DNA of 64,000 nucleotides, taken from positions 128,025 to 192,024 of the IMG/VR virus record IMGVR_UViG_3300031647_000750. One strand, 5' to 3'. The DNA is from a virus (lineage: Duplodnaviria > Heunggongvirae > Uroviricota > Caudoviricetes). The notes under the pieces are model-generated. The model was not told where the DNA came from. It saw nothing but the letters and a program-made list of their open reading frames with translations, and searched no databases. Of this stretch, positions 8,949-64,000 are shown in pieces. The first letter of the stretch is position 1, and every line of letters begins with the position of its first letter. The position numbers and the translations under genes are program-made.

Positions 8949-10382
8949 ATGACAGAAAAGAAATTACCATCAGATACGTTTTGTATTCTACCTTGGATAC
9001 ATTTGAGTACTCGCCCAGACGGCAGTATGAGAGTATGTTGTACAGCAAATGCAAGTAGTGTTGGTGCAACAAATGATAAAGTTCACGGTGGGCGAGTTGG
9101 CATTGTTAAGACAGATGATGGTAAGCCTGCAAACCTAAACAACAGTGACTTGTCTAGTGCATGGAACAATAGTTACATGCGTGGTGTACGTCAACAAATG
9201 CTTGCAGGAGAAAAGCCTGCTAGTTGTTTGAAATGTTACAAAGAAGAAGATGCAGGACATCGATCTAAGCGACAGTGGGAAACCCAGTACTGGATGCGTG
9301 ATGGAATTGATGTTGATGAACTTGTTAAAGAAACATATGAAGACGGTTCAACTGATTCAAAACTACGATACATTGATATCCGTATGGGTACTAAATGCCA
9401 ACTTGGTTGCGTTATGTGTAGTCCACACGATTCATCAGGATGGGTAAAAGATTGGAATAAGTTGTATCCACAGATTACCAATGAGTCACTAAAAGAAACA
9501 ATGTCTTGGGATGATAAAGGCAAGCAGTTTGGTGCTAATTATAACTGGCATAAAAACAACCCACAGTTTTGGGAACAATTTTATGCTCAAATTCCATTCA
9601 TGCGTCAACTATACTTTGCAGGCGGCGAATCGACGGTTATCGAAGAGCATTATGAAATCCTAGATAAAGTTATTGAAATGGGTTATGCATCTCAGATTGA
9701 GTTGCGTTACAACAGTAATGGCATTGAATTGCCTGATCGTCTACTAGAGCAATGGAAGCATTTCCAAAAGGTACGTTTCCATTATAGTATTGACAGTATT
9801 GGTGAAATGAATGATTATATTCGTTACCCAAGTGAATGGTCACATCAACTTGCAATGTTTGAGCGTCTTGATACACAGACTTCTAACAACGTAGAGATTA
9901 CAATCGCGTGTGCAGTTAACGCACTAAACATTCACTACATTCCAGACTTCCTTAAATGGAAACTGCAATCAGACTTGAAGAAGACAAACATGTGGCCCTT
10001 TGGCGCTGGTGGCATTAACTATCACTTTGTATACTGGCCAGGACATTTGAATGTCAAGGTATTGCCAGATGAGTTCTTAGACAAAACCGAAGCGAAGTAT
10101 GAAGAGTTCATTGCATGGTGGAAAGAGAATTGGGAACTAGGTGTTCCAAGTTGGCACAAGGGTAAAGTAGATTATCAGAAATGGGAAGATGCTGAATATG
10201 GCATCAAGCGTTTACGTGGTATGATTAGTTTTGCTCGTAGTGAAGATTGGAGTCAGCGATTACCAGAGTTTAGAGAATACATTAACAAACTAGACGAGAT
10301 GCGCGGCACCGATTTCAGAAAAACATTTGCAGACATGGCTTACTTATTAGACGAGCCTACAGAGGACAATGATAGTGACTGA
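8949..10382 (+). CDS. Radical SAM enzyme, long form (paralog A), with an N-terminal RxCC motif and a central CxxxCxxC motif
   Basis: KCQLGCVMC is a C-x3-C-x2-C motif; FAGGESTV is a GGE motif; the N-terminal LPWIH..DGSMRVCC is shared with paralog B. Confidence 0.7.
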   Translation: MTEKKLPSDTFCILPWIHLSTRPDGSMRVCCTANASSVGATNDKVHGGRVGIVKTDDGKPANLNNSDLSSAWNNSYMRGVRQQMLAGEKPASCLKCYKEEDAGHRSKRQWETQYWMRDGIDVDELVKETYEDGSTDSKLRYIDIRMGTKCQLGCVMCSPHDSSGWVKDWNKLYPQITNESLKETMSWDDKGKQFGANYNWHKNNPQFWEQFYAQIPFMRQLYFAGGESTVIEEHYEILDKVIEMGYASQIELRYNSNGIELPDRLLEQWKHFQKVRFHYSIDSIGEMNDYIRYPSEWSHQLAMFERLDTQTSNNVEITIACAVNALNIHYIPDFLKWKLQSDLKKTNMWPFGAGGINYHFVYWPGHLNVKVLPDEFLDKTEAKYEEFIAWWKENWELGVPSWHKGKVDYQKWEDAEYGIKRLRGMISFARSEDWSQRLPEFREYINKLDEMRGTDFRKTFADMAYLLDEPTEDNDSD

Positions 10383-10926: not shown

Positions 10927-12492
10927 ATGTTAGATGTTGTCATGTTGGCGTATGGTGAACCAAACGCTGATCAAAATTTCAAAAGAATACAGAAATTAGC
11001 ACCCAATGCGAAGAGGGTAGATAATGTCGTCGGGATTTTAGAGGCACATCAAGCAGCAGCAAAATTGGCAACTACTGATAATTTTTATGTAGTAGATGCT
11101 GACGCGGTGTTATCTGAGCATTTTAATTTCTCATTCACACCTGATATCATTAAAGAATCGTATCCGGGTGTGAATGAATCAAGTTGTGTATTCGTATGGC
11201 AGAGTGTTAATGCAGTCAATGGATTGATTTATGGTTATGGTGGAGTAAAGTTATTCCCTAGACATAAGTTATTGAATGCGAAATCATTTCAGATAGATAT
11301 GACCACAACAATAGATGCACCATTAGTAGTGAAGCAACAAATATCTAATATAACCGAATTCAATACAGATGAATTCAGTACATGGCGCAGTGCATTCCGT
11401 GAGTGTACAAAACTAGCATCTAACCCCACTCCAGATATGGATGATCGATACAGATTAGATGTATGGTGTACTCGTGGAGATAGCAGTGCCCATGGAAAAT
11501 ATGCTATAATGGGTGCTAGACAAGGACGAGAGTTCGGTGCATTTTACAAAAATGATAAGAAAACTCTAGATAAAATAAACGATTTCACTTGGTTAACCAC
11601 TACATTTGACAAGTCATCAGTGCATACAATAGATCAGCATCACCCAATTCATTTATCATGGTTTCATGGACTAGAAGAATATTTTACATTGTCATCCGTA
11701 GAATCATACTATGCAGTATTTATTAAACTAAAGAATGCACTGGTATACGGTGATAACTGGGGCATTCGCGATCTTATTTTAGAAGAAGTAAATATAGGTA
11801 AGAATGAAGACACTGAACTTTATGTTAATGTAATACTTCAATCATTATTAATAGATGATTATGTAATACCAGATCATCAAGTATTGGAATATATTAATCG
11901 CAATATTAATGATAATTTTATATATGGATTGATGAAATTGTCTGACCCATCGCATGGTAATATTGATCTAGTAGATTTTATCACACGTGATTCGATGATA
12001 GGCAAGTCTTGGATGATTGAAGAATTAAGTAAGACAACGTTGGAACCATCTGATGTTGTAATATTGGGTGGTAACATATGCACCCATTCATCTATGTTAA
12101 TTAATAATTATGAAACAATTGAATCTATACTTAGTGTGGATATAGATCATAAGACAACAGAGTATGCTCGTTTGTTAAATCATATAGCAGAATCTGACGA
12201 ATTATTCAGTGCACAAACCAATGATGTATCTGATATAATATGGGATGAATCATCTCTGCCTGATTTATTGATAAACACTAGTTGCGCACATATGGATGAT
12301 ACATGGTTTGACAATATACCAGATACTGATGATACTTTGATAGTAATACAGACAAATGATTTTTCAGATAATATGAACTGCGTTAAAGATCTGTCTACCG
12401 CCATGACTAAATACCAAATGAAAGAAGTATTATTTAGTGGTGAACAAAGCACACAGTTATATAATAGATTTATGATTATAGGAATCAAGTAA
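10927..12492 (+). CDS. Two-domain protein: N-terminal GT-A (family 2-like) glycosyltransferase-like domain fused to a conserved C-terminal Rossmann-like (methyltransferase-like) domain
   Basis: N-terminal VVMLAYGEP...VVDADA (DxD). The C-terminal 150 aa are paralogous to the C-terminus of ORF 33512 (VILGGNICTHS / NTSCAHMDD / RFMIIGIK). Confidence 0.5.
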   Translation: MLDVVMLAYGEPNADQNFKRIQKLAPNAKRVDNVVGILEAHQAAAKLATTDNFYVVDADAVLSEHFNFSFTPDIIKESYPGVNESSCVFVWQSVNAVNGLIYGYGGVKLFPRHKLLNAKSFQIDMTTTIDAPLVVKQQISNITEFNTDEFSTWRSAFRECTKLASNPTPDMDDRYRLDVWCTRGDSSAHGKYAIMGARQGREFGAFYKNDKKTLDKINDFTWLTTTFDKSSVHTIDQHHPIHLSWFHGLEEYFTLSSVESYYAVFIKLKNALVYGDNWGIRDLILEEVNIGKNEDTELYVNVILQSLLIDDYVIPDHQVLEYINRNINDNFIYGLMKLSDPSHGNIDLVDFITRDSMIGKSWMIEELSKTTLEPSDVVILGGNICTHSSMLINNYETIESILSVDIDHKTTEYARLLNHIAESDELFSAQTNDVSDIIWDESSLPDLLINTSCAHMDDTWFDNIPDTDDTLIVIQTNDFSDNMNCVKDLSTAMTKYQMKEVLFSGEQSTQLYNRFMIIGIK

Positions 12493-13805
12493 TGAACGAT
12501 GACGATATAAAGAACAATGACACAGATAATGGGTTTTGCGCACTGCCATTTGTACAATATAGTACATTCAATGGGGGTCGTTATCGATTATGTTGTATGG
12601 CAAAGGAACCTAGTGAACTTATTAATCAAGAAGAACTAGGCATAGATGGAACATGGAATCATGATTACATTCGTAGTGTTCGTGAGCGTATGGCTACGGG
12701 CGAATGGCTACCAGAGTGTATAGAATGTAAAAGATTAGAACGTAACGATATTATAAGTTCTCGTCAATGGGAAAACTATTCATGGAAAGATCAGGTTCCA
12801 GATATTGTAGCATTGGCAAGTGCAAATGATTGGAATATAGAACAGCCTCTACAATTTGATTTTAGATTAGGTAATTTGTGTAATCTACAATGTCAGATGT
12901 GTAACAAAGAAGCATCGCATTTAGTAAGTGTTGAGCGTGCCAATATGATTGCAACAGATTTGGGTCCCAAATCTCCTAACTTAGATAGATATGATTGGGA
13001 CAATAATATTGCTAATAAAAAGAAAGCGATAATTCAGCCTGGCATCGATTGGGATAGTTTTGATAAGATGCTGCCATATGCACAGACGATTAAAATGATT
13101 GGCGGCGAACCAACTGTTGTATCTGATATGTTCAAGTTGCTAGACAGAGCAACTGAATCCGGATACGCAAAAAATATTACATTATCGTTCTACACGAACA
13201 TCACCAATATGCAAGATAGATGGTTGAAGCAATTTAGTCAGTTTAAGCAAGTTGTTGTAAATTGCTCATTAGAGGGCATGGGTGATATGAATGATTATTT
13301 ACGTCCGCCATCGCAGTGGGATTCAGTATGGGAAAATTTTGATAAGTTAGTAAAGTATTCAAATACATCAGAAGGAAAGAACATTCGTGTACGTGTCACT
13401 ACGGTGAATCAAGTAACAAACGCGTTGCATTTGGTTCCATTCTGGAGATTTATGCACGATTATCAACAGACTAATGACCGTACCATCGGCATGAGTACGA
13501 ATCAATTGGTAGAACCTGAATATTACTCAATGGCGCATAGTCCCCAATGGTTGCGTGATGAACAGAAATCACAGATACTAGAATTTTTAGAAGAGATAAA
13601 AGATAGTCCTCATTATGAAGATTATTCACGTCCGTTAATGGAAGCATTGCATTTTGGCGAAGATCCAGAAACCAAGTATGATCGTGGATTTATGAGGGAT
13701 TATGTTCAAGTAACAGAAAACTATGATAAGCATCGCGGACATGATGTGATGTCAGTAGCACCTGAATTTAGCCGAATTAAATCAGATTTAGAACTTGACA
13801 AGTAA
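12492..13805 (+). CDS. Radical SAM enzyme, long form (paralog B)
   Basis: LGNLCNLQCQMC is a C-x3-C-x2-C motif; MIGGEPTV is present; the N-terminal LPFVQY..GGRYRLCC is shared with paralog A. Confidence 0.7.
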   Translation: MNDDDIKNNDTDNGFCALPFVQYSTFNGGRYRLCCMAKEPSELINQEELGIDGTWNHDYIRSVRERMATGEWLPECIECKRLERNDIISSRQWENYSWKDQVPDIVALASANDWNIEQPLQFDFRLGNLCNLQCQMCNKEASHLVSVERANMIATDLGPKSPNLDRYDWDNNIANKKKAIIQPGIDWDSFDKMLPYAQTIKMIGGEPTVVSDMFKLLDRATESGYAKNITLSFYTNITNMQDRWLKQFSQFKQVVVNCSLEGMGDMNDYLRPPSQWDSVWENFDKLVKYSNTSEGKNIRVRVTTVNQVTNALHLVPFWRFMHDYQQTNDRTIGMSTNQLVEPEYYSMAHSPQWLRDEQKSQILEFLEEIKDSPHYEDYSRPLMEALHFGEDPETKYDRGFMRDYVQVTENYDKHRGHDVMSVAPEFSRIKSDLELDK

Positions 13806-13813
13806 GGAAATAA

Positions 13814-14482
13814 ATGACATCAACTAATATGGAATATTTAACTGAGATAGATTTTGCATTAACCACATATTGTCAAGCACGATGTAGAAGTTGTGCTAGA
13901 ACGAATCAACATACTGGTGAAAAAGAAGATTGGTTAGAACTCAAGCATATGAATCTAGATGTGTTTAAACGAACTCTTGCAGCATCTACTAATATAAAGT
14001 ATAATCTAATTGAGTTTTGTGGCGAGTTGGGCGATCCCATGATGCATCCACAAGTTGACAAATTTATAGAAACTGCATTAGAATATGCACCATCAATATT
14101 AATATCAACAAATGGTGCGCTTAGAAATGCAAACTGGTATAAGACGATAGCAGAAAAATACACAGACGATGTCTTTATAAATTGGGCAATTGATGGAGCA
14201 ACACATGACACCAATTGGAAGTATAGAGAAGGTGTTGATTTTAATAAAGCTTTTGAAAATATGAAAACTCACACTCAATCAGGTGGGGATGGTGAATGGC
14301 GATATTTAATATTTGAGTGGAATTGGCATGAAATACCGCTAGCACGTCAAATGGCAAAAGAGATTGGAATTAAAATTATTTTTTGCTTCAATAATAGAGA
14401 TTTTGGATTAATAACACCAGATTCTAGATTGGATGCAGAAAAATTATTAATAGGAGTGAGTCCAGATGACATCAAAGGGTAA
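13814..14482 (+). CDS. Radical SAM enzyme, short form (paralog C), N-terminal catalytic part only
   Basis: TTYCQARCRSC is a C-x3-C-x2-C motif and EFCGELGDPMMHP is present. The product ends where paralogs D and E continue into a (W/Y)PCC domain. Confidence 0.6.
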   Translation: MTSTNMEYLTEIDFALTTYCQARCRSCARTNQHTGEKEDWLELKHMNLDVFKRTLAASTNIKYNLIEFCGELGDPMMHPQVDKFIETALEYAPSILISTNGALRNANWYKTIAEKYTDDVFINWAIDGATHDTNWKYREGVDFNKAFENMKTHTQSGGDGEWRYLIFEWNWHEIPLARQMAKEIGIKIIFCFNNRDFGLITPDSRLDAEKLLIGVSPDDIKG

Positions 14483-14876
14483 ATATAATATTGAATGTCA
14501 ATCATTCGAAGCTCTAAATGAATTTACTAACCTCCCTGTAAGAAAATGGGAAGTAACACCAGAAGGAAGAGTGTGGCCATGTTGTTATTTTGCAAATGCA
14601 TGGGATAGACGACATATGATGAGGGCAGATGAATTGGGTCCCGATGAAGATTCTAGTGAAGAAGATTTTCATAATGTAAATGGTGAATCAGCAGAATTAT
14701 TGAATGATGCTAGAATGATGACTATAATAAATGAAGATCCTGATTGGAATAGTTTAGAACATCACTCTATAGAAGAAATCATAGCGCACGAAGTATTCCA
14801 CAGTTACATCTGGACTGAAGGATGGAATAGCGATAATCCTGCGATATTGTGTGTTAATAATTGTAATAAGTGTTGA
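14466..14876 (+). CDS. C-terminal WPCC-motif domain homologous to the C-termini of radical SAM paralogs D and E, encoded as a separate ORF overlapping 13814..14482 by 17 nt
   Basis: TPEGRVWPCCYFANAWD aligns with DGKVYPCCMFYA (22211) and WGTVWPCCHISNHA (37417). Confidence 0.5.
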   Translation: MTSKGKYNIECQSFEALNEFTNLPVRKWEVTPEGRVWPCCYFANAWDRRHMMRADELGPDEDSSEEDFHNVNGESAELLNDARMMTIINEDPDWNSLEHHSIEEIIAHEVFHSYIWTEGWNSDNPAILCVNNCNKC

Positions 14877-17795: not shown

Positions 17796-18119
17796 ATGGC
17801 AATTACATTATCTAAAGAAGCATCAGAGCGCATATCAGATTACATGATCAACAGAGGACCTACGTACGGTGTACGTGTAGGTGTAAGAACAACAGGTTGT
17901 TCTGGTCTTGCATACATAGTAGAGTTTGTCGATAATATTGACGAGAATGATACAGTCTTTGTATCAAATGAAATAAGTATTGTAGTAGATCCTAAAGGTT
18001 TAACATACCTTGACGGTACTGAGTTGGATTATGGACGTGATGGACTCAACGAAGGATTCAGATTTAATAATCCAAACGCAAAAGACGAATGCGGTTGTGG
18101 CGAAAGTTTCACTGTATAA
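17796..18119 (+). CDS. A-type Fe-S cluster carrier (IscA/ErpA/HesB family)
   Basis: 107 aa with the conserved Cys triad (C..GCSG ... C-G-C-G C-terminal motif ECGCGESF). Confidence 0.75.
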   Translation: MAITLSKEASERISDYMINRGPTYGVRVGVRTTGCSGLAYIVEFVDNIDENDTVFVSNEISIVVDPKGLTYLDGTELDYGRDGLNEGFRFNNPNAKDECGCGESFTV

Positions 18120-22210: not shown

Positions 22211-23236
22211 ATGTATGACATTAAAACAATAGAATTGGAATTAGCAACTGTGTGCAATGCATATTGTCCCGTATGTATTCGCTATGATGCAAGAGACGAA
22301 GGTTTATTTTTAAACCCCAAAGCCAATCTTAATCAATTGATAGATCTAGATACTATCGACAAATGTTTTAAATCAGACAAAATACCCGATGACGTAGAAG
22401 TGAGTCTAGTTGGTACTTCTGGCGATCCACTTGCTCATCCTAAAATTTTAGATATTATCAAATTGATATTACATCATAAGTCGCATGCAACATTTAATAT
22501 CCATACTAATGGTGGACTTAGATCAACAAAATTATTCGCTGAACTTGCACATATATTAGGAGATGGCGATAGGTTTTGTTTTAGTTTAGATGGGTTAGCA
22601 GATACCAACCATATATATCGAATAGGGGTTGACTTCAAGAAAGTAATATCTAATATGACTGCATTCATTGAAGCGGGCGGCACACCAATTTGGCAATTTG
22701 TGATATTTGATTGGAACAAACATCAGATAGAAGAATGTAGAAAATATGCATTTGATTTAGGCTGTAGAGCATTTGAGTCTCGCGAAAATGTCAATCCCGG
22801 GCTTATAGATGTCGCCATCGCATCTGCAAATAAGCAGATAGTTAATGCTGTATCTCCATCGTTTTATTCTGATAGTATGGTCGAGTCTGATGATTATGAT
22901 TACATAGACGATGCGTGTATTCAAGAACAAGGAATATTCATGGCACCAGATGGTAAAGTATATCCTTGTTGTATGTTCTATGCGGAACGTGCGGGTCCAG
23001 GTTCTACATTGGTGTACGATACCATGTATAAGAAGTTTGGATATGATTGGAATGATTTAACTATATATTCACTAGATCAGATTCTAGATCATGCTTGGTG
23101 GGATGAACTACATACCAGCATAGTTAAAAGTCCATGTGTTACATGCATCAATAACTGTGGTGCTGTTCGTGATGAACGTAGTAATTCTGACATAAACGAA
23201 AAGGCATATCAAAATATTTCAAGGACATTAATATGA
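22211..23236 (+). CDS. Radical SAM enzyme, short form (paralog D), with a C-terminal YPCC domain
   Basis: ATVCNAYCPVC is a C-x3-C-x2-C motif; LVGTSGDPLAHP is present; C-terminal DGKVYPCCMFY plus CVTCINNC. Confidence 0.7.
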   Translation: MYDIKTIELELATVCNAYCPVCIRYDARDEGLFLNPKANLNQLIDLDTIDKCFKSDKIPDDVEVSLVGTSGDPLAHPKILDIIKLILHHKSHATFNIHTNGGLRSTKLFAELAHILGDGDRFCFSLDGLADTNHIYRIGVDFKKVISNMTAFIEAGGTPIWQFVIFDWNKHQIEECRKYAFDLGCRAFESRENVNPGLIDVAIASANKQIVNAVSPSFYSDSMVESDDYDYIDDACIQEQGIFMAPDGKVYPCCMFYAERAGPGSTLVYDTMYKKFGYDWNDLTIYSLDQILDHAWWDELHTSIVKSPCVTCINNCGAVRDERSNSDINEKAYQNISRTLI

Positions 23237-31773: not shown

Positions 31774-31830
31774 CTTGCTTTATTATTAATTCCGTAGTAT
31801 AATATATGTTAACCAATAAAGGAAATACCA

Positions 31831-36355: not shown

Positions 36356-37420
36356 ATGAACGCAGTTAACGCTTGGACAGAGTTTCAACCATTGAAGAAA
36401 GTAGTATTGGGTGCACCATTCCCAGAAACTGCATTTGATTGGCACGAAGATGAAGAGACACGAGACACTATGCGACAAATCTTCCGTGAAACAGCCGAAG
36501 ATATTGAAGTATTAGCACAACTATTAGAAGCACGTGGAATTGAAGTGGTACGTCCCAAGAACATCTTTACAATCACTGGTGAAGAACAGATTCAATTACC
36601 GTGGGCTCATTGTGCGTTTCCGAACCATCCATTAATGCCGCGCGATACGTTGATGCCATATGGTCATTCAATTTTTGAATGCTTTACAGGCGGTGACAAT
36701 CGTTACTTTGAAAACCTAGCATACTATGATCACGTAGTAGAATGGTTTAAACAAGGTGCTGATTGGATTTCAATGCCTGGCTGCATGGTAGAAACTGGTA
36801 AAGGATATGATGAATACGTAGCAGAGCAGCGTGTACTGTATCATGCTGCAAATATGATCAAGTGTGGTGATACTATCTTATTCAGTCAACCATACGAAGG
36901 TGACAACAAGCGTGGACGTGGTACGAATTTGGGCAAGGAATGGATGCAAAGAGAAATCAAACAGCGTTATCCTGATACTAAATTTATTGATATTCCAATT
37001 GGTGGTCACATAGATGGTAAGATTGCATTATTGAAGCCGGGTGTTCTTATGACGTGGAACAAAGCATGGGTCCCAGAAGAATTCAAGAATTGGACAATCA
37101 TTGAAGTAGAAGATGATTTTGACATGCCAGCAGATTTTCAAAATACACGTAAGCGTAGATACTATAAAGAGTATGTACAGAAGTGGTTAAGTCATTGGGT
37201 AGGTTATGCAGACGAGTCTGTATTTGATGTTAATGTATTATCATTGGATGAAAAGACGGTAATCTGTACAGGTAAAAACGATGCAGCATTTGCTGAAATG
37301 GAAGCAAACGGAATTGAACCAATTGTTTGGCGATTCCGTCATCAGTATTTTTGGGATGGTGGTATCCATTGCTTGACTAGTGATATCGTACGTGAAGGTA
37401 ATTGTGAGAATTATTTATGA
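36356..37420 (+). CDS. Amidinotransferase-fold (pentein superfamily) enzyme, agmatine/arginine deiminase-like
   Basis: C-terminal WDGGIHCLTSD matches the catalytic-Cys signature GG(N/G)IHC(I/M)T of agmatine and peptidylarginine deiminases; upstream Asp/His-rich segments. Confidence 0.45.
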   Translation: MNAVNAWTEFQPLKKVVLGAPFPETAFDWHEDEETRDTMRQIFRETAEDIEVLAQLLEARGIEVVRPKNIFTITGEEQIQLPWAHCAFPNHPLMPRDTLMPYGHSIFECFTGGDNRYFENLAYYDHVVEWFKQGADWISMPGCMVETGKGYDEYVAEQRVLYHAANMIKCGDTILFSQPYEGDNKRGRGTNLGKEWMQREIKQRYPDTKFIDIPIGGHIDGKIALLKPGVLMTWNKAWVPEEFKNWTIIEVEDDFDMPADFQNTRKRRYYKEYVQKWLSHWVGYADESVFDVNVLSLDEKTVICTGKNDAAFAEMEANGIEPIVWRFRHQYFWDGGIHCLTSDIVREGNCENYL

Positions 37421-38475
37421 GTATGCTATGGCGTGATAATATACAAAGCCTACAAGTAGATGTTACTAGTTATTGTAATGCTAAGTGTGGTGGATGCGCT
37501 AGAAATGACGACGGTCATGAAACAAGACCGGGTCTTATTCTTGAAAACTTTGATGTTGATGTATGGAATCGTATGGCAGAGCATGATACCAAAGATATTT
37601 TTATTAATGAACTGGTATTAAACGGGAATTGGGGTGACTCTATGATGCATCCTAAAATTAAAGATATGGTTACAACATTTGCAAAATTTCATCCAGAAGC
37701 GAGTTTATATATTCATACCAATGGCAGTATGCGCACGACCAAATTCTGGGCTTCTTTTGCCAAAGTTTGTCGTCAATTCTCAAATCATCGTGTAGTTTTT
37801 GCAGTAGACGGTCTAGAAGATACACATGCGATATATCGTCGTAATACCGACTTTCTTAAAATTATGGAGAATATTAAAGCATTCACCGATGCGAATGGAC
37901 GAGCGAGTGTAACCATGACCCTATTTGAACACAATAAACATCAAGTAGAAGAAGTTAAAAAATTAGCACAATCGCTTAATGCAGATTTTGCCTTACGTTA
38001 CAGTCATGGAGATGAACTAGAAGTAATTGCGCCTGGCGAAAATTATATGATATATGCATGTGATGAATTGCCCGAAGAGGAGGTAGAAGTAGAAGTAGAG
38101 CATGATAATGAAGTAGAGCATGATAATTATAGATTAAGTGATTTACCAAATTATATGGATAATCTAATTATATCAGATGCAATAGAACCTGTCGCATCAA
38201 CATGTCCGTGGTTAGCAGATCGTCAAGTGCAAATTGATCCATGGGGTACGGTGTGGCCATGTTGTCATATTAGTAATCATGCAAATTCCTTTTCATCAGA
38301 GTATACTGGGATCGCCGCAACTGATGATAATTTCGATGAAGGTAAACTAGCAAATAACCTGAAGCATACGCCGTTATATGATATCCTTAGTAATCGGTGG
38401 TATGCGGATGTGTTACCTGATGCGGTAAAACATGAAAAATGGCTAGTTTGTCGTGATTCATGCTTTAGTGATTAA
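37417..38475 (+). CDS. Radical SAM enzyme, short form (paralog E), with a C-terminal WPCC domain and an acidic (EVEVEHDN)2 insert
   Basis: VTSYCNAKCGGC is a C-x3-C-x2-C motif; LNGNWGDSMMHP is present; C-terminal WGTVWPCCHISNHA...CRDSC. Confidence 0.7.
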   Translation: MSMLWRDNIQSLQVDVTSYCNAKCGGCARNDDGHETRPGLILENFDVDVWNRMAEHDTKDIFINELVLNGNWGDSMMHPKIKDMVTTFAKFHPEASLYIHTNGSMRTTKFWASFAKVCRQFSNHRVVFAVDGLEDTHAIYRRNTDFLKIMENIKAFTDANGRASVTMTLFEHNKHQVEEVKKLAQSLNADFALRYSHGDELEVIAPGENYMIYACDELPEEEVEVEVEHDNEVEHDNYRLSDLPNYMDNLIISDAIEPVASTCPWLADRQVQIDPWGTVWPCCHISNHANSFSSEYTGIAATDDNFDEGKLANNLKHTPLYDILSNRWYADVLPDAVKHEKWLVCRDSCFSD

Positions 38476-39659: not shown

Positions 39660-40025
39660 ATGACATATATCGTAGATGATTCTTGCATTAAATGTAAGTA
39701 CACGGACTGCGTAAGTGTGTGTCCCGTTGATTGCTTTTATGAAGGTGAAAACACTCTTGTAATTAATCCAGACGAATGTATCGACTGTGGTGTATGTGAA
39801 CCCGAATGTCCAGCAGGTGCAATTCATCCTGATACTAACTTAGATCCCACGGGACCTGATTGGGTGGAGATTAATCGTAAGTATAGCGAAGATCATAACT
39901 GGCCTGTTCTAACCGTACAGAAAGATGCATTACCAGATGCTGATTTGTTTAATCCAAAGAAAGGATACACGGGTCCAAGTAAGTTGATTGATTTAATTGA
40001 AATGGCTGGTCCTGGAGATCAGTAA
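39660..40025 (+). CDS. fdxA: 7Fe ferredoxin (FdxA, Azotobacter-type [3Fe-4S][4Fe-4S])
   Basis: [28 protein letters not shown]...[14 protein letters not shown] is nearly collinear with the FdxA consensus. Confidence 0.8.
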
Positions 40026-40581: not shown

Positions 40582-40983
40582 ATGATTGAAATAACAAAAA
40601 AAGCACAAGAGTATATGACCACTATCGCGACAGGTGACAATGAAATAGTTAAACTTGCGCTTGAAGGTGGTGGTTGTTCTGGATTCCAATATTCGTGGAA
40701 CATCATCGATAAAGATGGTATCGATGAAATGAGCGATGAGGTTATGACGTTTGAAGATGGTGGTGGACTAATCATAGACGGTATGAGTCTGATGTATTTG
40801 TTCGGTAGTGAAATTTCATTAGAATCAAATCTAATGGGTACAAAACTAATCATAAGCAATCCACAAGTAACCAGTTCATGTGGTTGTGGCGATAGCGTCA
40901 ACATAGATACTGGAGCAGCATCTTGTCCCAAAGAAGAACCAGCAGCATATAATGCGGATATGTTTTACGATCCCTCAGAGTAG
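40582..40983 (+). CDS. A-type Fe-S cluster carrier (IscA/HesB family), second copy with a C-terminal extension
   Basis: C-S-G...S-S-C-G-C-G cysteine triad. Confidence 0.65.
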   Translation: MIEITKKAQEYMTTIATGDNEIVKLALEGGGCSGFQYSWNIIDKDGIDEMSDEVMTFEDGGGLIIDGMSLMYLFGSEISLESNLMGTKLIISNPQVTSSCGCGDSVNIDTGAASCPKEEPAAYNADMFYDPSE

Positions 40984-53736: not shown

Positions 53737-53742
53737 AACTAG

Positions 53743-53771
53743 TTGACAAGTAACACTCGTCATGCTATAAT
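53743..53771 (+). promoter_or_regulatory. Promoter TTGACAAGTAAC-17-TATAAT upstream of prs
   Basis: Consensus hexamers. Confidence 0.55.
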
Positions 53772-57825: not shown

Positions 57826-58070
57826 TGGGTAAAGTATTTACTATCATGAGTGAACAGAATCAGAATCCAGTGGCTACACAATGTATTGACACTGATGATT
57901 CTACTAAATCTTGGACAGAAGCAGGTCAACAACGTACACGAAATGCACGTGACAAAATTCGTCTTGCACTAATTCAATCTAGGAAAGACGGCGAAGCAGG
58001 TAACGAAGCGAAGGTATTAGAAGCAGCAGAATTGCGATTGCAACTAGTGGCATTTGATGCTGGTAAGTAA
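57825..58070 (+). CDS. Hypothetical protein
   Basis: ORF. Confidence 0.35.
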   Translation: MGKVFTIMSEQNQNPVATQCIDTDDSTKSWTEAGQQRTRNARDKIRLALIQSRKDGEAGNEAKVLEAAELRLQLVAFDAGK

Positions 58071-58130
58071 CCGTAACACATAAATTCGCAAAGAATTGCG
58101 ATGTAATTAAATTAAAAAAGGTAGAATACA

Positions 58131-58310
58131 ATGAACGAAATTCATCAACAAATCGTAGAAGCATATGAAGCATACTTAACAGAACATGCATCATGGGAAG
58201 ATAAAGGCGTTAAGGCAGCAGCAGCGCGTGCACGTAAAGCACTTGGCGATCTTGGTAAACTTACCAAATCTCGACGCAGCGAAATACAAGACAAAAAGAA
58301 CGCAATGTAA
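58131..58310 (+). CDS. Small basic Ala/Lys-rich protein (59 aa)
   Basis: ATG with RBS aaggtag; not in the track because it is under 60 aa. Confidence 0.35.
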   Translation: MNEIHQQIVEAYEAYLTEHASWEDKGVKAAAARARKALGDLGKLTKSRRSEIQDKKNAM

Positions 58311-58586
58311 TTTACAGCAAATGATAAATATGAGGGTCAGTAATATGATCCTTATACAATCAAATTGCAACTCGACACATTCGAGTGAAGGATCACTGAT
58401 AATATAGTGAGGTTGAATTTAAAAAAGGTTATGAATTTTTTAGAAGTGGCATTTCTGGTGTCTGGTTGTGGTGGAGTTATAGCATTACATGAGTATGTAA
58501 TATATAGAGAAGATATCGATGAACACGATCGATATGATGAAGAAGATCAATACGAAGATTGATAAATAATTATATAGGTATATAAT

Positions 58587-59048
58587 ATGAAATTAAGTAA
58601 AAATTTCACAGTAAGTGAATACACAAAATCATCAACTGCAACTCGTAGATGCATTGATAATTCAATGACTCCAGAACATCTAGTAAGTGCTAAAGCCTTA
58701 TTTGAAAATGTAGTTCAACCAGTAAGAGATCACTTTGGTCCTACTGTTATTACATCTGGATACCGATCAGATGCATTAAATGATGCAATTGGCGGTGCAC
58801 GTGGTTCTCAGCATTCAAAAGCAGAAGCCGCAGATTTTGAAACAAAATATTCTACAGTAGAAACTGCACAATGGATTGCAGATACTTTAGACTTTGATCA
58901 ACTAATCTTGGAATTTTATGTTCCCGGTGACCCTAACTCAGGTTGGACTCATTGTAGTTATAAATCAAAGGCGGAAAATAGAAACCAAATCTTAACCGCA
59001 GTCAAGGAAGATGGTAAAACCGTTTATAAACATGGAATCGTAACATAA
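58587..59048 (+). CDS. Peptidase M15 family (L-Ala-D-Glu / D-Ala-D-Ala peptidase-like) cell-wall hydrolase
   Basis: SGYRS...SQHSKAEAADF...WTHCSY corresponds to the M15 zinc ligands H-x6-D and H. Confidence 0.55.
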   Translation: MKLSKNFTVSEYTKSSTATRRCIDNSMTPEHLVSAKALFENVVQPVRDHFGPTVITSGYRSDALNDAIGGARGSQHSKAEAADFETKYSTVETAQWIADTLDFDQLILEFYVPGDPNSGWTHCSYKSKAENRNQILTAVKEDGKTVYKHGIVT

Positions 59049-59082
59049 TTAGAATTGGTATAATAACCCAAGGAAATAAAAT

Positions 59083-59289
59083 ATGAGTACATTAGATAGT
59101 TTAACACACCATAAAGAAGTACTAGAACAACGTCATCGTTTATTAGATAAGGTCATTGCTGACATGTATAAACAAAATTCAGATGATGTATTACTACATA
59201 CTATGAAAAAAGAAAAGTTACAACTACGTGACGAAATTGAAGTAATGAATATTCAATTGGAACAAAATAAATCAAAAACTTTCAATTAA
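59083..59289 (+). CDS. Hypothetical small coiled-coil protein
   Basis: ORF. Confidence 0.4.
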   Translation: MSTLDSLTHHKEVLEQRHRLLDKVIADMYKQNSDDVLLHTMKKEKLQLRDEIEVMNIQLEQNKSKTFN

Positions 59290-59292
59290 CAC

Positions 59293-59346
59293 TTGACAAG
59301 TAACTCATATTGTTATATAATATCTATATTAAATAAGGAAGTAATT
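59293..59346 (+). promoter_or_regulatory. Conserved promoter plus leader cassette variant
   Basis: TTGACAAGTAAC-17-TATAAT ... AAGGAAG. Confidence 0.55.
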
Positions 59347-59439
59347 ATGTTTTGGTTATTACACGCAGCAGCATTAATCGTTATGCCTCTTGCATTATTT
59401 GTGACTATACCACTACATCTCATTTCTAATCAACTATAG
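59347..59439 (+). CDS. Very small membrane protein (30 aa)
   Basis: ATG after the leader RBS; hydrophobic. Confidence 0.3.
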   Translation: MFWLLHAAALIVMPLALFVTIPLHLISNQL

Positions 59440-59455
59440 TTAAGGAATTAACAAT

Positions 59456-60109
59456 ATGAAATTTTTACTTGTATGTTCATTTTTGACGTTATTAGGTGCA
59501 GCGGCTTACGGTGAATTTGGAATGGCATCAGGAAAATTGCTCGTACCTGCAAAGATTGATTTATCAGAAGATGAGTCTTGGATAAAGATTCAAGGTCGTT
59601 CTGATAGAAAATTCTTTCTGACTAATCCAGAGAAGCATCCCCAAATCTTTTGCCTTGCAAAGAATATATATTTTGAAGCAGGTATTGATAGTCGCGCTGG
59701 CATGTACGCTGTGGCAGATGTAACATTAAATCGTGTAACAGACTCACGATGGGGTAATACAGTATGTGATGTTGTTCATCATGGAGCAAAAAAAGAGAGT
59801 TGGAAAACAAAGCAAGATCCTACTCTTCCTGATTCATTACGAATATATTATCCTGTTAAGAACAAGTGTGCATTTTCATGGTATTGTGACGGCAAGCCAG
59901 ACACCATCCCTTATGGAAGCACCAACTGGATTAAATCACAACACATAGCATGGGATATTTACATGAATGGTAATTATAGTGGAATCACAGAAGGATCTAC
60001 CCACTACCATGCATCGTATGCTACATTCGGACAAGGTGATTGGCGCAAAGATCGTGGCATGCAATTCATAAGTCTTATAGGACAGCACATCTTTTATCGG
60101 TGGAACTAA
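59456..60109 (+). CDS. Secreted cell-wall hydrolase of the SleB / Hydrolase_2 family
   Basis: Signal peptide MKFLLVCSFLTLLGAAAYG; NIYFEAGIDSRAGMYAVADVTLNRV and CAFSWYCDG match the SleB C-terminal domain signature. Confidence 0.65.
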   Translation: MKFLLVCSFLTLLGAAAYGEFGMASGKLLVPAKIDLSEDESWIKIQGRSDRKFFLTNPEKHPQIFCLAKNIYFEAGIDSRAGMYAVADVTLNRVTDSRWGNTVCDVVHHGAKKESWKTKQDPTLPDSLRIYYPVKNKCAFSWYCDGKPDTIPYGSTNWIKSQHIAWDIYMNGNYSGITEGSTHYHASYATFGQGDWRKDRGMQFISLIGQHIFYRWN

Positions 60110-60285
60110 TGAGTATTGAAAATAGTGACGACGAAGCAGTAACCACAATTAATAAAGTGATCAAGTTAGTATATGCACGATGGGACAATGGTCACATTGA
60201 CGCAATGCAACGAGACATCTTAATAAATCAATTAAAAAATACATTATATGCCTTAACAGGCAGTGATGATGATAAATATTACTAA
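60109..60285 (+). CDS. Hypothetical small protein
   Basis: TAATG-coupled ATG; the track ORF from 60040 overlaps the upstream gene. Confidence 0.35.
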   Translation: MSIENSDDEAVTTINKVIKLVYARWDNGHIDAMQRDILINQLKNTLYALTGSDDDKYY

Positions 60286-60318
60286 ATACAACAGTATTAC
60301 AATTTAAAGGAGAAACTT

Positions 60319-60636
60319 ATGTTTACTACAACAACAACTTATGAAAACAACGCAGGATGGGATACCATAGAAGAAGCACTCACTGAAATTAATGAACTAA
60401 TGACTGCAACAAAAACTGAACAGGATCAGATTAAACTCGATGAGTTAGAGTCTACTAATGATTTGATCTGGGGTGTACCTACGCTAAGCAGTGATGGAGT
60501 CACATATACATCGGTGATAACTGCAAGTCAACATGCACTGGATGTAATGGAAAGCATGTCTGCTGATTCTGGAGCAACCACTATGTATGATACAATTCAA
60601 AAATTTCAGTCTGACTGGACACCAGTGGTCGAATAA
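60319..60636 (+). CDS. Hypothetical acidic protein
   Basis: ORF with RBS aaggagaa. Confidence 0.45.
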   Translation: MFTTTTTYENNAGWDTIEEALTEINELMTATKTEQDQIKLDELESTNDLIWGVPTLSSDGVTYTSVITASQHALDVMESMSADSGATTMYDTIQKFQSDWTPVVE

Positions 60637-60971
60637 TGACTCAATGGCATGGCGGCAAAGGTGATTTAAGACGCGCTTCTACCTACGGTTCTAAATTTGG
60701 TGATAATTATGACAAAATTTGGGGCAAAAAAGAAGCGACATTTGAGAAGACGAAGTCATCAGTGTCAGATGATGACTTACGTCCAATCGATGGAAGACTT
60801 GTCGAAGCAGATGAATGTGTGTGTCATAAATGTATTACGGACAATAAATTAATTGATTCTAGTGGATTCTTAATAAGCGTCTCTGGTAGGGTAGTATGCC
60901 CAGAGTGCAAATCAACACGATGTACTCACGCACAAGATCATAATAACAAATGTGGTGGTTGGTCACTGTAA
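60636..60971 (+). CDS. Cys-rich (zinc-ribbon-like) protein
   Basis: CVCHKC ... CPECKSTRCTH ... CGGW. Confidence 0.45.
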   Translation: MTQWHGGKGDLRRASTYGSKFGDNYDKIWGKKEATFEKTKSSVSDDDLRPIDGRLVEADECVCHKCITDNKLIDSSGFLISVSGRVVCPECKSTRCTHAQDHNNKCGGWSL

Positions 60972-61016
60972 TAGGTACCGTGACAGTACACCATGTATGA
61001 ATAATGGGAAATTAGT

Positions 61017-61580
61017 ATGCAAGGAAGAACAGAATACACGCACGACAAATTACATGAGACAATTCGATGCCAACGAAATTGGGATTGGGATAATCAAGTA
61101 ACACCAGAGCATTTAGCAATTCTTGATGAATATGTAGCAAAGCCTGCGCAACAACAAGGTGAACGAATGTTTAGTGTTGCACGAATTCATAATGATATGG
61201 AAAAAATATCTGACATACATGACAATTTAAACAAAAGTAATACTCAAGTACTGGCCCCTTTGGTGTATATTTGGTTTCCACTTGACGAACACGTCTGGGA
61301 TCACCACCTTCAAGCAGGGTTTCATGCAGGAATTATATCTAAATTAGCAAACGAGTTGGGGTATGCTACTGGGTTTTGTGGTTGTGGAGCAAGTGAAAAT
61401 AGTGAATGGTCTAGTATTACAGAAAAATATAACCTAACACCAGTAGAAGATTATAAAGATCCTATTTTTATATTAAGTATAGGACACGGAAAACCTGATA
61501 CTCCATACAACAAAGACCATCTTGAAAATTTTATTCATACGCACCATCGATATGATCACGCACCAGTAAAAACAGTATAA
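61017..61580 (+). CDS. Hypothetical protein, possibly nitroreductase-like; flanked by a 31-bp perfect direct repeat
   Basis: ORF; weak fold-level resemblance only. Confidence 0.35.
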   Translation: MQGRTEYTHDKLHETIRCQRNWDWDNQVTPEHLAILDEYVAKPAQQQGERMFSVARIHNDMEKISDIHDNLNKSNTQVLAPLVYIWFPLDEHVWDHHLQAGFHAGIISKLANELGYATGFCGCGASENSEWSSITEKYNLTPVEDYKDPIFILSIGHGKPDTPYNKDHLENFIHTHHRYDHAPVKTV

Positions 61581-61699
61581 TTTAATATAGGCATATGCTA
61601 CGTGACACTAGTATATCATAATAACAAATGTGGTGGTTGGTCACTTTAAGATAAGTGGTCGACGATTCACAAAATTCGCAGTTACTAATGGAGATTAAA

Positions 61700-62914
61700 A
61701 TGTCGAATCCAACATATATGGATTATTCATCAACGACCCCAGTTGATCCACGGGTCGCCAAAAAAATGGCAGATTGTTTAACAATGGAAGGCAACTTTGG
61801 CAATCCTGCATCACGTTCACATACGTACGGATGGGAAGCAGAAGCAGCCGTTGATAAAGCACGCAAACAAGTGGCAGATTTGATTGGAGCAGATACACGA
61901 GAGATTGTATGGACATCAGGCGCAACTGAATCAAACAATCTAGCACTTAAAGGCATTGCTCAGTTTTATGCAAAACGTGGTAAGCATATTATTACGTTAC
62001 GAACAGAACATAAAGCAATACTAGATACTTGTCGTCAACTTGAGCGTGAGGGATTTGAAGTAACTTACTTAGACCCAATGCCCAACGGTTTACTAGACAT
62101 TGAAGTGTTTAAAAATACAATCAGAGAAGACACCATTTTAGCATCATTTATGCATGTTAATAATGAGATTGGTGTTATACAAGACTTACACGCCATTGGT
62201 GATATCTGTAGAGAACATAAAGTATTCTTCCATGTTGACGCTGCTCAATCAGTAGGCAAAATGCCAATTGACTTAGCAACGCTCCCAGTAGATTTAATGA
62301 GTTTTTCCGCACATAAGATATACGGACCTAAAGGCATGGGTGCATTGTATGTATCACGTAAACCTAGAGTTCGTCTTGAAGCACAAATGCATGGTGGTGG
62401 TCATGAACGCGGTATGCGTTCTGGTACATTAGCAACACATCAAATTGTTGGCATGGGCGAAGCATTTGCTATCGCACAAGAAATGATGGCAGAAGAAGAA
62501 GTTAGAACACGCGCACTTAGAGATAGGTTATACGCAGGCTTTTCAGATATGGAAGAAGTAGTAGTTAATGGTGATTTTGAACAGCGTATTGGCAGCAACT
62601 TAAATATCAGTTTCAATTACGTAGAGGGTGAATCTCTATTAATGGCAATCTCTAATATTGCAGTATCTTCTGGTTCTGCATGTACATCTGCAAGTCTTGA
62701 ACCATCATACGTTCTTAGAGCGTTAGGACTTAGTGACGAATTAGCACACAGTTCAATTCGATTTAGTGTTGGTCGTTATACAACAGAAAAAGATGTAGAT
62801 GATGCAATTATTCTAGTACGACAGAAAGTAGAAAAATTAAGAGACTTATCACCATTATGGGACATGTACAAAGATGGTGTTGATTTAAGTACGGTACAAT
62901 GGGCTGCTCACTAA
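61700..62914 (+). CDS. iscS: Cysteine desulfurase IscS
   Basis: 404 aa from the ATG at 61700 (RBS GGAG). [19 protein letters not shown]-Lys [11 protein letters not shown] and active-site SSGSACTS match IscS. Confidence 0.9.
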
Positions 62915-62959
62915 TAAGCAACCCTAAATAATAGTAAATTAACTAAGGAATATAATTAT

Positions 62960-63343
62960 ATGAGTTACAGTAAGGCAGTATTAGATCATTACGAAAACCC
63001 ACGCAACGTAGGTAAGATGGATGAATCTGATGAAAATGTAGGTACAGGAATGGTAGGTGCACCAGCATGTGGTGACGTAATGCGTCTACAAATCAAGGTT
63101 AGCGATGAAGGCATCATTGAAGATGCTAAGTTCAAAACCTATGGGTGTGGTTCTGCAATTGCATCAAGTTCATTGGTGACAGAAATATTAAAAGGTATGG
63201 ATTTAGACGAAGCAGTTTCTATTTCTAATAGTGAAATTGCACAAGAACTTGCATTACCACCTGTTAAAATTCACTGTTCTGTATTAGCAGAAGACGCTAT
63301 CAAAGCAGCAGTCGCAGATTATAAAGAAAAGCACGCCATCTAA
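62960..63343 (+). CDS. iscU: Fe-S cluster scaffold IscU
   Basis: About 75% identical by eye to enterobacterial IscU over 127 aa (GAPACGDVM, YGCGSAIASSS, PPVKIHCS). Confidence 0.9.
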   Translation: MSYSKAVLDHYENPRNVGKMDESDENVGTGMVGAPACGDVMRLQIKVSDEGIIEDAKFKTYGCGSAIASSSLVTEILKGMDLDEAVSISNSEIAQELALPPVKIHCSVLAEDAIKAAVADYKEKHAI

Positions 63344-63639
63344 TGTGGGACATCATACAAAGCATGTCATCAGATAGACTCTGGATATGGACTGCATTGG
63401 CTGGTAGTATTTTCGGTGCATTGTTTATAGCATGGATTACTGATACTCGTGTCGCTCTATGGACTTATGGTAAATGGTCTACATTACTAAATTATCTAGT
63501 AACTAAATGGGGTTGGACATGGTTTCAAGAAGATCCCAATGCATGGAAAAAACTAAACCCTAATCTATCTAATAAGATAGTTGATCTAGAATCTCGCATT
63601 ATCGAACTAGAAAACAAAAAAACATTAGAGGACAAGTAA
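63343..63639 (+). CDS. Hypothetical Trp-rich membrane protein
   Basis: ORF with ATGTG overlap with iscU. Confidence 0.4.
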   Translation: MWDIIQSMSSDRLWIWTALAGSIFGALFIAWITDTRVALWTYGKWSTLLNYLVTKWGWTWFQEDPNAWKKLNPNLSNKIVDLESRIIELENKKTLEDK

Positions 63640-64000
63640 TTGGCAACCACATATGAAACTGTGTTAGAAGTAATTCATTACACAGACGAATTATTTTATT
63701 TCAAAACAACACGTAATCCAGGATTCAGATTTAAAGATGGTGAATTCGTTATGATGGGTTTAGATCATTTCTCAGAAAAACTTCAAAAGAATAAACCTAT
63801 ATTGAGAGCATACAGTATTGCTTCTCCATCGTACGCTGAATACTTAGAATTCTATAGTATCAAAGTACAAGATGGTCCGTTAACAAGTAAATTACAGCAT
63901 GTTAAAGTAGGTGACAAAATCCTAGTAGGTACTAAACCAACTGGTACATTAGTCCCAGATAATGTCAAGCCAGGTCGTAATCTATATATGTTAAGTTCGG
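63640..64000 (+). CDS. fpr: Ferredoxin/flavodoxin-NADP+ reductase (Fpr-like), 3'-truncated by the window end; probable TTG start
   Basis: TYETVLEVIHYTDELFYFKTTR...RAYSIAS...LEFYSIKVQDGPLTS parallels E. coli Fpr VTKVQNWTDALFSLTV...RAYSYVN...LEFYLVTVPDGKLSP. Confidence 0.6.
   Translation, partial: MATTYETVLEVIHYTDELFYFKTTRNPGFRFKDGEFVMMGLDHFSEKLQKNKPILRAYSIASPSYAEYLEFYSIKVQDGPLTSKLQHVKVGDKILVGTKPTGTLVPDNVKPGRNLYMLSS

Follow-up and report, generated by a model that had tools for sequence, protein, structure and literature searches.

Introduction

To our knowledge, auxiliary metabolic genes (AMGs) for iron-sulfur (Fe-S) cluster biogenesis are among the commonest metabolic genes of ocean viromes, and those published to date encode only scaffolds and carriers. 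Here, we analyze a 64,000-nucleotide stretch of a Caudoviricetes record (IMGVR_UViG_3300031647_000750, positions 128,025 to 192,024; hereafter the window), which encodes at its 3′ end the cysteine desulfurase IscS, the Fe-S scaffold IscU and, cut by the window end, the ferredoxin-NADP reductase Fpr. The window is, in our judgment, likely to be part of a large marine jumbo-type myovirus that carries auxiliary Fe-S biogenesis genes and has Pseudomonas phage PA5oct as its nearest cultured backbone.

Marine T4-like viral genomes with IscU, A-type carriers, up to 12 radical S-adenosylmethionine (SAM) genes, glutaredoxin (Grx) and ClpP have been described previously; their IscU is of gammaproteobacterial type, and the same idea of viral Fe-S supply and demand was proposed for them (Nishimura et al, 2017, mSphere, PMC5332604). 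The same paper, which reports Fe-S assembly AMGs (iscU, sufA/iscA) in ocean viromes, cites earlier accounts of such AMGs (Sharon, 2011; Hurwitz, 2013). The T4-like genomes resemble the window in combining a viral scaffold and carrier with many viral Fe-S clients. However, they have no reported cysteine desulfurase or reductase, whereas the phage described here adds IscS and Fpr and has the ferredoxin FdxA, and its backbone is PA5oct-like jumbo rather than T4-like. Phage C48C1 (Kyanoviridae, OQ984149) encodes a NifU-like Fe-S assembly protein, an IscU 79% identical to that of the window, but it has IscU only, with no IscS or Fpr nearby. At the level of annotation, iscS has been listed as a viral "sulfur relay" AMG by VIBRANT (PMC7288430) and in lake phages (PMC11041744); these cases come from gut and lake viromes, and neither the operon context nor the donor of iscS, nor any link to IscU and Fpr, is given for them.

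The bacterial counterpart is the iron-sulfur cluster (ISC) operon, iscR-iscS-iscU-iscA-hscB-hscA-fdx, as found in Escherichia coli and in Pseudothioglobus sp. nBUS_23 (contig L008). The phage locus is similar in that iscS lies just upstream of iscU with a short spacer, and in that phage IscS, IscU and IscA pass equivalog models and keep catalytic and partner residues. It differs in lacking iscR, hscB, hscA and a 2Fe-2S fdx, all of which are present in the L008 operon, in having iscA 44 kb away in a tRNA array, and in that a small membrane ORF (open reading frame) and an Azotobacter-type fpr follow instead. For the redox proteins, the nearest described pair is Azotobacter vinelandii ferredoxin I (FdI) and NADPH:ferredoxin reductase (FPR; PDB 1A8P), presumably a cognate couple, of which phage FdxA and Fpr are full-length homologues, albeit encoded 24 kb apart.

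Results

The iscS-iscU-fpr cluster

The 3′ end of the window reads as follows:

61700..62914, + strand: iscS, IscS-subfamily cysteine desulfurase, 404 amino acids (Pfam Aminotran_5, 4e-84)
62960..63343, + strand: iscU, Fe-S scaffold, 127 amino acids (Pfam NifU_N, 5e-53)
63343..63639, + strand: TM98, an ORF of 98 amino acids, predicted to have a single membrane helix, with a stretch rich in Trp and a coiled-coil tail
63640..64000, + strand: fpr, ferredoxin-NADP reductase, truncated by the window end after 120 of its 260 codons, with a TTG start that adjoins the stop codon of TM98

The ATG of iscS at 61700 is preceded by a GGAG ribosome-binding site, and a longer GTG ORF from 61655 is unused by the gene callers in six metagenomes. 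IscS scores above the NCBIfam equivalog cutoffs (TIGR02006, 721.2 against 643.2; NF010611, 735.7 against 548) and below that of the DndA model TIGR03235 (430.6 against 480), and it aligns over its full length and without gaps with E. coli IscS (PDB 1P3W). The catalytic residues are intact (E. coli numbering): Lys206, which binds pyridoxal phosphate (PLP), the Cys328 loop SSGSACTS, H104, D180, Q183 and R354. The same is true for the surface residues R220, R223, R225, R237, M239, R340 and W45, which we take to be the contact patch for Fdx, CyaY, IscX and TusA. IscU, separated from iscS by a spacer of 45 nucleotides, exceeds the TIGR01999 cutoff (221.7 against 192.4) and retains the cluster ligands C37, C63 and C106 as well as D39, H105 and the LPPVK motif at residues 99–103. 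A reading made earlier from the window's letters and ORFs (hereafter the sequence-only reading) had named both proteins and called the IscS cysteine loop and IscU cysteine triad intact, and our residue check by alignment bears this out. Among phage copies, dN/dS (the ratio of nonsynonymous to synonymous substitution rates) is 0.04–0.08 for iscS and 0.09–0.12 for iscU, indicating purifying selection, and IscS is 94–96% conserved between relatives compared with ~83% on average for the flanking proteins. Phage IscS thus looks like a working cysteine desulfurase, with putative sulfur transfer to IscU.

The other ISC components are missing. HscB, HscA, a 2Fe-2S Fdx, IscR, CyaY, IscX and Grx were found neither in the window (Pfam, nearly all ORFs) nor in the 10 kb downstream, so a complete ISC system (hscB, hscA, isc-type 2Fe-2S fdx, iscR, cyaY/iscX) is not encoded there. 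The proposal of a complete supply chain therefore does not hold, and neither hscBA nor fdx, whose presence in the adjacent genome had been raised as a check, follows downstream.

TM98 has no sequence match in Pfam, PHROG, NCBIfam or PDB. In this phage clade it is invariably located between iscU and fpr, and it is 80–84% conserved in the relatives L087, L090 and L107 (L numbers denote contigs). Homologues occur near a DnaJ-iscS pair (L100) and near iscU (L117-120), and also alone (L108-116). TM98 is a putative member of the Fe-S module.

The fpr fragment in the window gives a weak FAD_binding_6 match. The complete gene of 260 codons is available in metagenome contig L001 (11941-12723), as the contigs are identical over this region. 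Full-length Fpr matches the structures 1A8P (Azotobacter), 2QDX (Pseudomonas), 2BGI and 6RR3 over residues 5–259 (E 7e-71 to 2e-78), these FPR structures being from Azotobacter, Pseudomonas, Acinetobacter and Rhodobacter, and it stays below the E. coli-type Fpr model NF008178 (104 against 390). It is an FPR of the Azotobacter/Pseudomonas/Rhodobacter type. The segments RAYSIAS and GTGVAPF, presumably the FAD and NADP motifs, are visible in the alignment with the PDB sequences.

The viral setting

The window has a G+C content of 36–37%, with densely packed genes and nearly all ORFs on the + strand. A tRNA array at 16239-22134 holds 18 genes predicted by ARAGORN, including Glu-UUC, and one more found with Rfam (17590-17672). 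The clamp loader (45735-46658) matches phrog_168, and its top cultured matches are PA5oct-type Pseudomonas jumbo phages, the best being PA5oct itself (~287 kb; 53% amino acid identity). Other genes in the window encode a protein with a gp31/GroES-like PHROG match, an M15 peptidase and a SleB-type hydrolase, and endolysin-type genes lie upstream. PHROGs families matching IscS, IscU, IscA and FdxA exist; there is none for Fpr.

Related contigs are found in IMG/VR. The exact IscS protein of the window occurs on 18 contigs, and in six places, from different samples of the Joint Genome Institute (JGI) and European Nucleotide Archive (ENA), the genes on both sides are the same as well. The order iscS-iscU-TM98-fpr recurs in at least six independent marine metagenome assemblies. 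More diverged relatives, with IscS 94–96% identical, come from Tara and other assemblies in contigs of 148–270 kb (318 kb on record) and keep the gene order iscS-iscU-TM98-(0–3 inserted genes)-fpr-lipase(-)-HD_4. One of the clade's contigs in the range of 270–318 kb is ERZ1699354 c_000000000002. Because the same order is present in at least six independent assemblies and on contigs of up to 318 kb, the arrangement is not a chimera, in line with what the sequence-only reading had argued from the phage-type genes on both sides. In independent assemblies, the host-derived metabolic genes thus have viral genes as neighbors on either side, as expected of viral AMGs.

A megablast of positions 58000-64000 against GenBank phages returned no match. 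The tblastn matches of IscS, IscU and Fpr in phage records are nearly all mislabelled bacterial contigs, and we dropped them as evidence for carriage by phages, with the exception of the IscU of Phage C48C1. Among the IscS matches listed (30 of 59 records) and those of IscU and Fpr, there are no PA5oct-type records. Nor is there a cultured phage with iscS among the listed matches, which are either such mislabelled contigs or unannotated metagenome fragments.

Donors of iscS, iscU and fpr

Where do the three genes come from? The sequence-only reading had described IscS and IscU as very close to enterobacterial sequences and hence as a recent capture. However, identity to E. coli is only ~70% for IscS and ~78% for IscU, and a metagenome-assembled genome labelled Enterobacteriaceae has full-length IscS and IscU proteins 72% and 79% identical to those of the phage, which is level with other Gammaproteobacteria. 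We searched 5.8e9 proteins and, as a second set, GTDB contigs with one genome per species. In the first search, the first named bacterium for IscS is Candidatus Thioglobus sp. NP1 (89%). In the second, Pseudothioglobus and the SUP05 cluster reach 86–88%, other Thioglobaceae 82–84%, clam symbionts 77–81% and the rest 71–75%. In neighbour-joining trees (35 taxa, 200 bootstraps), phage and Pseudothioglobus IscS form a clade in 199 of 200 bootstraps. Phage IscS shares all six Thioglobaceae signature columns and 10 of 20 Pseudothioglobus ones. These comparisons identify the Pseudothioglobus lineage (Thioglobaceae, SUP05 family) as the donor of iscS.

The capture was not recent. Phage and Pseudothioglobus iscS have 75% nucleotide identity, the proportion of synonymous differences (pS) is 0.78–0.80 (saturated), and G+C at third codon positions (GC3) is 0.24 in the phage compared with 0.32–0.40 in the host. 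With saturation at synonymous sites and a codon usage that has come to match that of the phage, the capture of iscS must be old. We considered whether compositional attraction between AT-rich phage and Thioglobaceae sequences causes the IscS grouping and rejected it: IscU is not pulled there, and the more AT-rich clam symbionts are farther away.

IscU has a different affinity. It is only 74–76% identical to Pseudothioglobus IscU, compared with 82–87% for Amphritea, Pontibacterium, Neptuniibacter and Motiliproteus (86–87% for Amphritea), and Amphritea, Pontibacterium and Neptuniibacter are the best named matches among the 5.8e9 proteins. It groups with Thioglobaceae in none of 200 bootstraps, carries 0 of 2 Thioglobaceae and 1 of 5 Pseudothioglobus signatures, and has the Oceanospirillales-like state in all seven columns that separate Oceanospirillales-like from Thioglobaceae IscU. 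The gene therefore appears to come from a widespread viral and Oceanospirillales-like pool, not from the donor of iscS. Fpr is 48–50% identical to Pseudomonas and Acinetobacter Fpr, and its nearest non-phage homologues reach 59–63%, with one named match, Ca. Endolissoclinum (60%); it seems to be of a third, separate origin. By this evidence iscS, iscU and fpr are an old patchwork drawn from different bacteria, and not a module captured in a single event.

Carriers, ferredoxin and radical SAM proteins elsewhere in the window

The two A-type carriers, the 7Fe ferredoxin and the five radical SAM paralogues that had been pointed out, like the truncated fpr, are all present:

8949..10382, + strand: radical SAM/SPASM protein, putative Fe-S client (Pfam Radical_SAM, SPASM; CxxxCxxC at residue 150)
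12492..13805, + strand: radical SAM protein, paralogue of 8949, putative client
13814..14876, + strand: radical SAM core (13814-14482) and SPASM part (14466-14876) encoded by two ORFs that overlap, putative client
17796..18119, + strand: iscA, A-type carrier, 107 amino acids, inside the tRNA array (Pfam Fe-S_biosyn, 2e-19)
22211..23236, + strand: radical SAM/SPASM protein, putative client
37417..38475, + strand: radical SAM/SPASM protein, putative client
39660..40025, + strand: fdxA, 7Fe (3Fe-4S and 4Fe-4S) ferredoxin (Fer4 and DUF3470)
40582..40983, + strand: second A-type carrier, ErpA-like, 133 amino acids with a C-terminal tail (Pfam Fe-S_biosyn, 3e-14)

The carrier at 17796 is marginally above the TIGR02011 cutoff (155.0 against 150.6) and fails NF007049 (152.5 against 181); C35, C99 and C101 are present (Cys-X63-Cys-Gly-Cys), and many gammaproteobacterial IscA proteins match it at 58–64% identity, none of them standing out as the donor. 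The carrier at 40582 has C32, C100 and C102, fails the ErpA model NF010147 (77.2 against 117) and passes only the generic TIGR00049 (68.2 against 58.8). FdxA passes NF045490 FdxA_Protbact (150.8 against 135) and matches Azotobacter FdI at 1.5e-33 with a conserved cysteine pattern. CxxxCxxC is found in all five radical SAM proteins of the window, and one further radical SAM protein is encoded downstream, in L001. Two paralogue groups can be distinguished among the five, 8949/12492 and 13814/22211/37417; the two overlapping ORFs at 13814-14482 and 14466-14876 look like a single gene that is split or frameshifted.

Some other genes deserve mention in their own right. Host-like proteostasis and translation genes at 25033-32139 and 44617-45297 encode two ClpP, ClpX, ClpS, IF-3 and ribosomal protein S21. 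A full-length inner-membrane transporter of the SbmA/BacA family (49950-51017; Pfam 3.5e-80) and a MotA/ExbB-like protein (47226-47663) are also present. A DUF5591 protein is encoded at 20297-21028 and a PTPS-family protein at 38957-39403. We take DUF5591 to be an ArcS/archaeosine-synthase-type domain and the PTPS family to include QueD; on these assumed identities, the two would hint at a 7-deazaguanine modification pathway, in which the radical SAM steps would count as Fe-S clients.

Variation and transcription of the locus

The region upstream of iscS contains the following features:

53742..53771, + strand: nearest upstream perfect sigma70-type promoter (GTTGACA-N17-TATAAT), ~8 kb before the module
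60937..60971, + strand: 35-nucleotide direct repeat, left copy, the 3′ end of a gene for 111 amino acids
61017..61580, + strand: ORF of 187 amino acids between the 111-amino acid gene and iscS, in this lineage only
61615..61649, + strand: 35-nucleotide direct repeat, right copy, in the spacer upstream of iscS

The 187-amino acid ORF, which has no match in Pfam, NCBIfam, PHROGs or PDB, is missing from L087, L090 and L107; in these relatives, the 111-amino acid gene lies directly beside iscS or iscU. The repeat copies are identical at 34 of 35 positions and flank this ORF, such that the 3′ end of the 111-amino acid gene is duplicated upstream of iscS. This looks like the scar of a cassette insertion, and the junction between the 111-amino acid gene and iscS is a hot spot of cassette gain and loss. 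An inverted-looking pair upstream of iscS, GGTCACTT...AAGTGGTC, was considered as an IscR-type operator and rejected, as it is the duplicated 3′ end of the 111-amino acid gene.

The syntenic relative L107 (IMGVR_UViG_3300027833_000025, 97.8 kb) has no iscS at exactly this site; there, the 111-amino acid gene is followed by iscU (91%), TM98 and fpr (92%), and TGGTTGGTCACTTT is duplicated in tandem at the junction (4530-4600). The 111-amino acid gene and iscS have similar 3′ ends (GGTTGGTCACTTTAA and GGGCTGCTCACTAA), which suggests microhomology-mediated gain or loss of iscS. The direction is ambiguous: the basal position of L107 in a weak IscU tree suggests gain, but its nested position beside L090 by nucleotide identity of the flanks suggests loss, in conflict with the tree.

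Six perfect GTTGACA-N17-TAWAAT sites are present on the + strand of the window (3927, 14872, 18279, 24971, 38479 and 53742), compared with 0.2 expected by chance, and probably mark early transcription units read by host sigma70. When 60000-64000 was scanned for promoters and terminators, no signal exceeded that expected from shuffled sequence. The genes are not separated by any terminator-like site, and the closest strong promoter is found only 8 kb upstream; the module therefore probably lies on a long transcript, and the site at 53742 may drive the long + strand unit that includes iscSU. The sequence-only reading had noted phage-like flanking genes that use the phage promoter style; the former is correct, whereas the promoter style is not found at the module itself, the nearest perfect site being the one ~8 kb away.

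iscS in other phage lineages

IscS proteins 84–93% identical to that of the window occur in at least four other phage-type contexts. In L093 the order is UvsX/RecA ... DEAD helicase ... iscS-iscU. In L097, L101 and L103 it is nrdB-grx ... iscS-iscU-CGFS monothiol Grx ... SNase ... fpr, and the CGFS protein following iscS-iscU (L097, 6242-6996) is a Fe-S carrier of the Grx4/GrxD type. In L095 (4213-6224), L096 and L100 (2211-4203), the gene for a 263-amino acid DnaJ-type J protein overlaps the start of iscS, peptide deformylase and ClpB follow, and no iscU is nearby; the J protein may stand in for HscB. In L102 (IMGVR_UViG_3300027668_001405, 1966-6059), iscS lies between the genes for an FdxA homologue (55%), 0.7 kb upstream, and for an ErpA-like carrier (42% identical to that at 40582), 1.5 kb downstream, again with no iscU nearby.

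All phage IscS proteins fall into a single clade, sister to Pseudothioglobus (135 of 200 bootstraps for phage monophyly), and they are accompanied by at least two types of IscU. Between the window and L093, iscS has a synonymous divergence (dS) of 0.64 and iscU is saturated, which argues that iscS spread among phage lineages after their iscU genes had diverged. IMG/VR holds at least 600 IscU stretches; IscS is missing from 78 of the top 80, in which IscU is usually paired with IscA, as in the genomes described by Nishimura et al (2017).

Discussion

That phages carry Fe-S helper genes is a published idea, and the addition of IscS and Fpr with their mosaic origin is a modest extension of it. 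What is new is that a PA5oct-like marine jumbo phage encodes IscS, IscU and Fpr in a single cluster, together with the identification of Pseudothioglobus as the donor of iscS, the different origins of adjacent genes and the variable presence of iscS among close relatives. The suggestion of the sequence-only reading that the phage boosts Fe-S capacity for its radical SAM enzymes is plausible, but the idea itself goes back to the T4-like genomes (Nishimura et al, 2017; PMC5332604).

How might such a set operate during infection? Phage IscS would draw sulfur from cysteine via PLP-Lys206 and a Cys328 persulfide and hand it to phage IscU, which would serve as the site for building [2Fe-2S] and [4Fe-4S] clusters, with the two A-type carriers delivering them. 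FdxA and Fpr could give NADPH-derived electrons for cluster assembly, for the reduction of radical SAM clusters, or for both. The main clients would be the radical SAM/SPASM enzymes of the phage and FdxA itself. The HscBA chaperone step, the isc ferredoxin, CyaY/IscX and regulation by IscR would be left to the host, and because the HscA-binding motif LPPVK and the Arg patch of IscS are retained, the set should connect to the rest of the ISC machinery in the host. In evolutionary terms, iscS would have been captured long ago from the Pseudothioglobus lineage and then moved among phage lineages beside an iscU of other origin. Expression, activity, clients, dependence on host HscBA and host identity are in this scheme inferred from the genes. 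The Fe-S function is supported by the neighbors of iscS and iscU elsewhere, which include putative trafficking partners such as the CGFS Grx and fpr in L097 and FdxA with an ErpA-like carrier in L102.

Several observations weigh against this interpretation. The 64-kb window contains no capsid or terminase gene. Extension upstream toward structural genes did not help, as the 726-amino acid ORF has no match on record and the contigs with the 197-amino acid ORF begin only ~4 kb upstream. Viral identity therefore rests on replication and lysis genes, PHROG matches, membership in IMG/VR and gene architecture. The absence of iscS from L107, and its presence without an adjacent iscU in L095, L100 and L102, imply that it is dispensable and may serve other sulfur-transfer roles. 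The trees are neighbour-joining trees, that of IscU with only 125 columns, and monophyly of phage IscS as sister to Pseudothioglobus is found in only 135 of 200 bootstraps. The Pseudothioglobus lineage is the likely host group given the source of iscS, but an assignment from this one AMG is weak, and IscU points to a different bacterial order.

Other explanations can be set against these data. E. coli IscS is the sulfur source for tRNA thiolation, thiamine, molybdenum cofactor (Moco) and similar pathways, and phage IscS could mainly be a general sulfur donor for thio-modification, with IscU as a separate, older AMG. Possible targets would be thiolation of phage tRNAs (s2U34 on tRNA-Glu(UUC), s4U8, ms2i6A), thiamine or Moco synthesis, and DNA phosphorothioation. 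The phage has at least 18 tRNAs including Glu-UUC, IscS keeps W45, R220, R237, M239 and R340, whose part in TusA/ThiI contacts we assume, and the three contigs with a lone iscS fit as well, as does the classification of iscS under sulfur relay in metagenomic surveys (PMC11041744). We nevertheless regard this explanation as unlikely, since TusA, ThiI, MnmA, MiaB-like and DndCDE genes were not found in the window (Pfam, nearly all ORFs), the DndA model stays under its cutoff, and four phage contexts combine iscS with Fe-S trafficking neighbors (IscU, CGFS Grx, ErpA-like carrier, FdxA, Fpr). The two roles are not exclusive and could coexist. That iscS and iscU are decaying passengers with no function in infection would agree with the hot spot of insertion and deletion at which they lie and with the iscS-free L107, but it is exceedingly unlikely in view of their low dN/dS, their intact catalytic residues and an IscS that is much better conserved than the flanking proteins.

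A recent en bloc capture of an iscS-iscU operon from an enterobacterial-like host would fit the gene order, the short spacer and the gap-free alignment with E. coli IscS. It is very unlikely and, in effect, already refuted by these results: identity to E. coli is too low, synonymous sites are saturated even against the closest bacteria and GC3 has moved to that of the phage, the nearest relatives of IscS and IscU are incongruent, divergence from L093 differs between the two genes, and the iscR, iscA, hscB, hscA and fdx of the host operon are unlinked. The nearest bacteria retrieved by protein search, Pseudothioglobus for IscS and Oceanospirillales-like bacteria for IscU, are likewise not enterobacteria. 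An artefact in which bacterial isc DNA was fused to a phage contig has a precedent in the GenBank "phage" records, whose iscS and iscU matches are mostly host contamination; here it is improbable in the extreme, given that both junctions are identical in six independent assemblies and recur in diverged Tara and ENA relatives, that G+C and GC3 agree with the phage, and that iscSU has no iscR, iscA or hscBA context.

We tentatively raise a broader possibility: several large marine phage lineages may have independently rebuilt an iscS-iscU pair, by placing a mobile Pseudothioglobus-derived iscS beside an iscU of unrelated origin and adding Fe-S trafficking partners around it (CGFS Grx, ErpA-like carrier, FdxA, Fpr, a DnaJ-type J protein and possibly TM98). 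If so, the sulfur donor would be a host-specific bottleneck that must match the host, and these phages would run a near-autonomous supply of Fe-S clusters and electrons for radical SAM chemistry.

In conclusion, the finding opens no new category and no long-standing question depends on it. The predicted host of a jumbo phage family that is widespread in Tara and other marine metagenomes is the Pseudothioglobus/Arctic96BD-19 group, which is poor in uncultured viruses. Since adjacent genes have incongruent origins, the locus illustrates cleanly how an operon can be re-assembled on a viral genome. By adding a sulfur donor and an NADPH-linked electron source, this phage clade offers a concrete and testable case of viral takeover of cofactor biogenesis.

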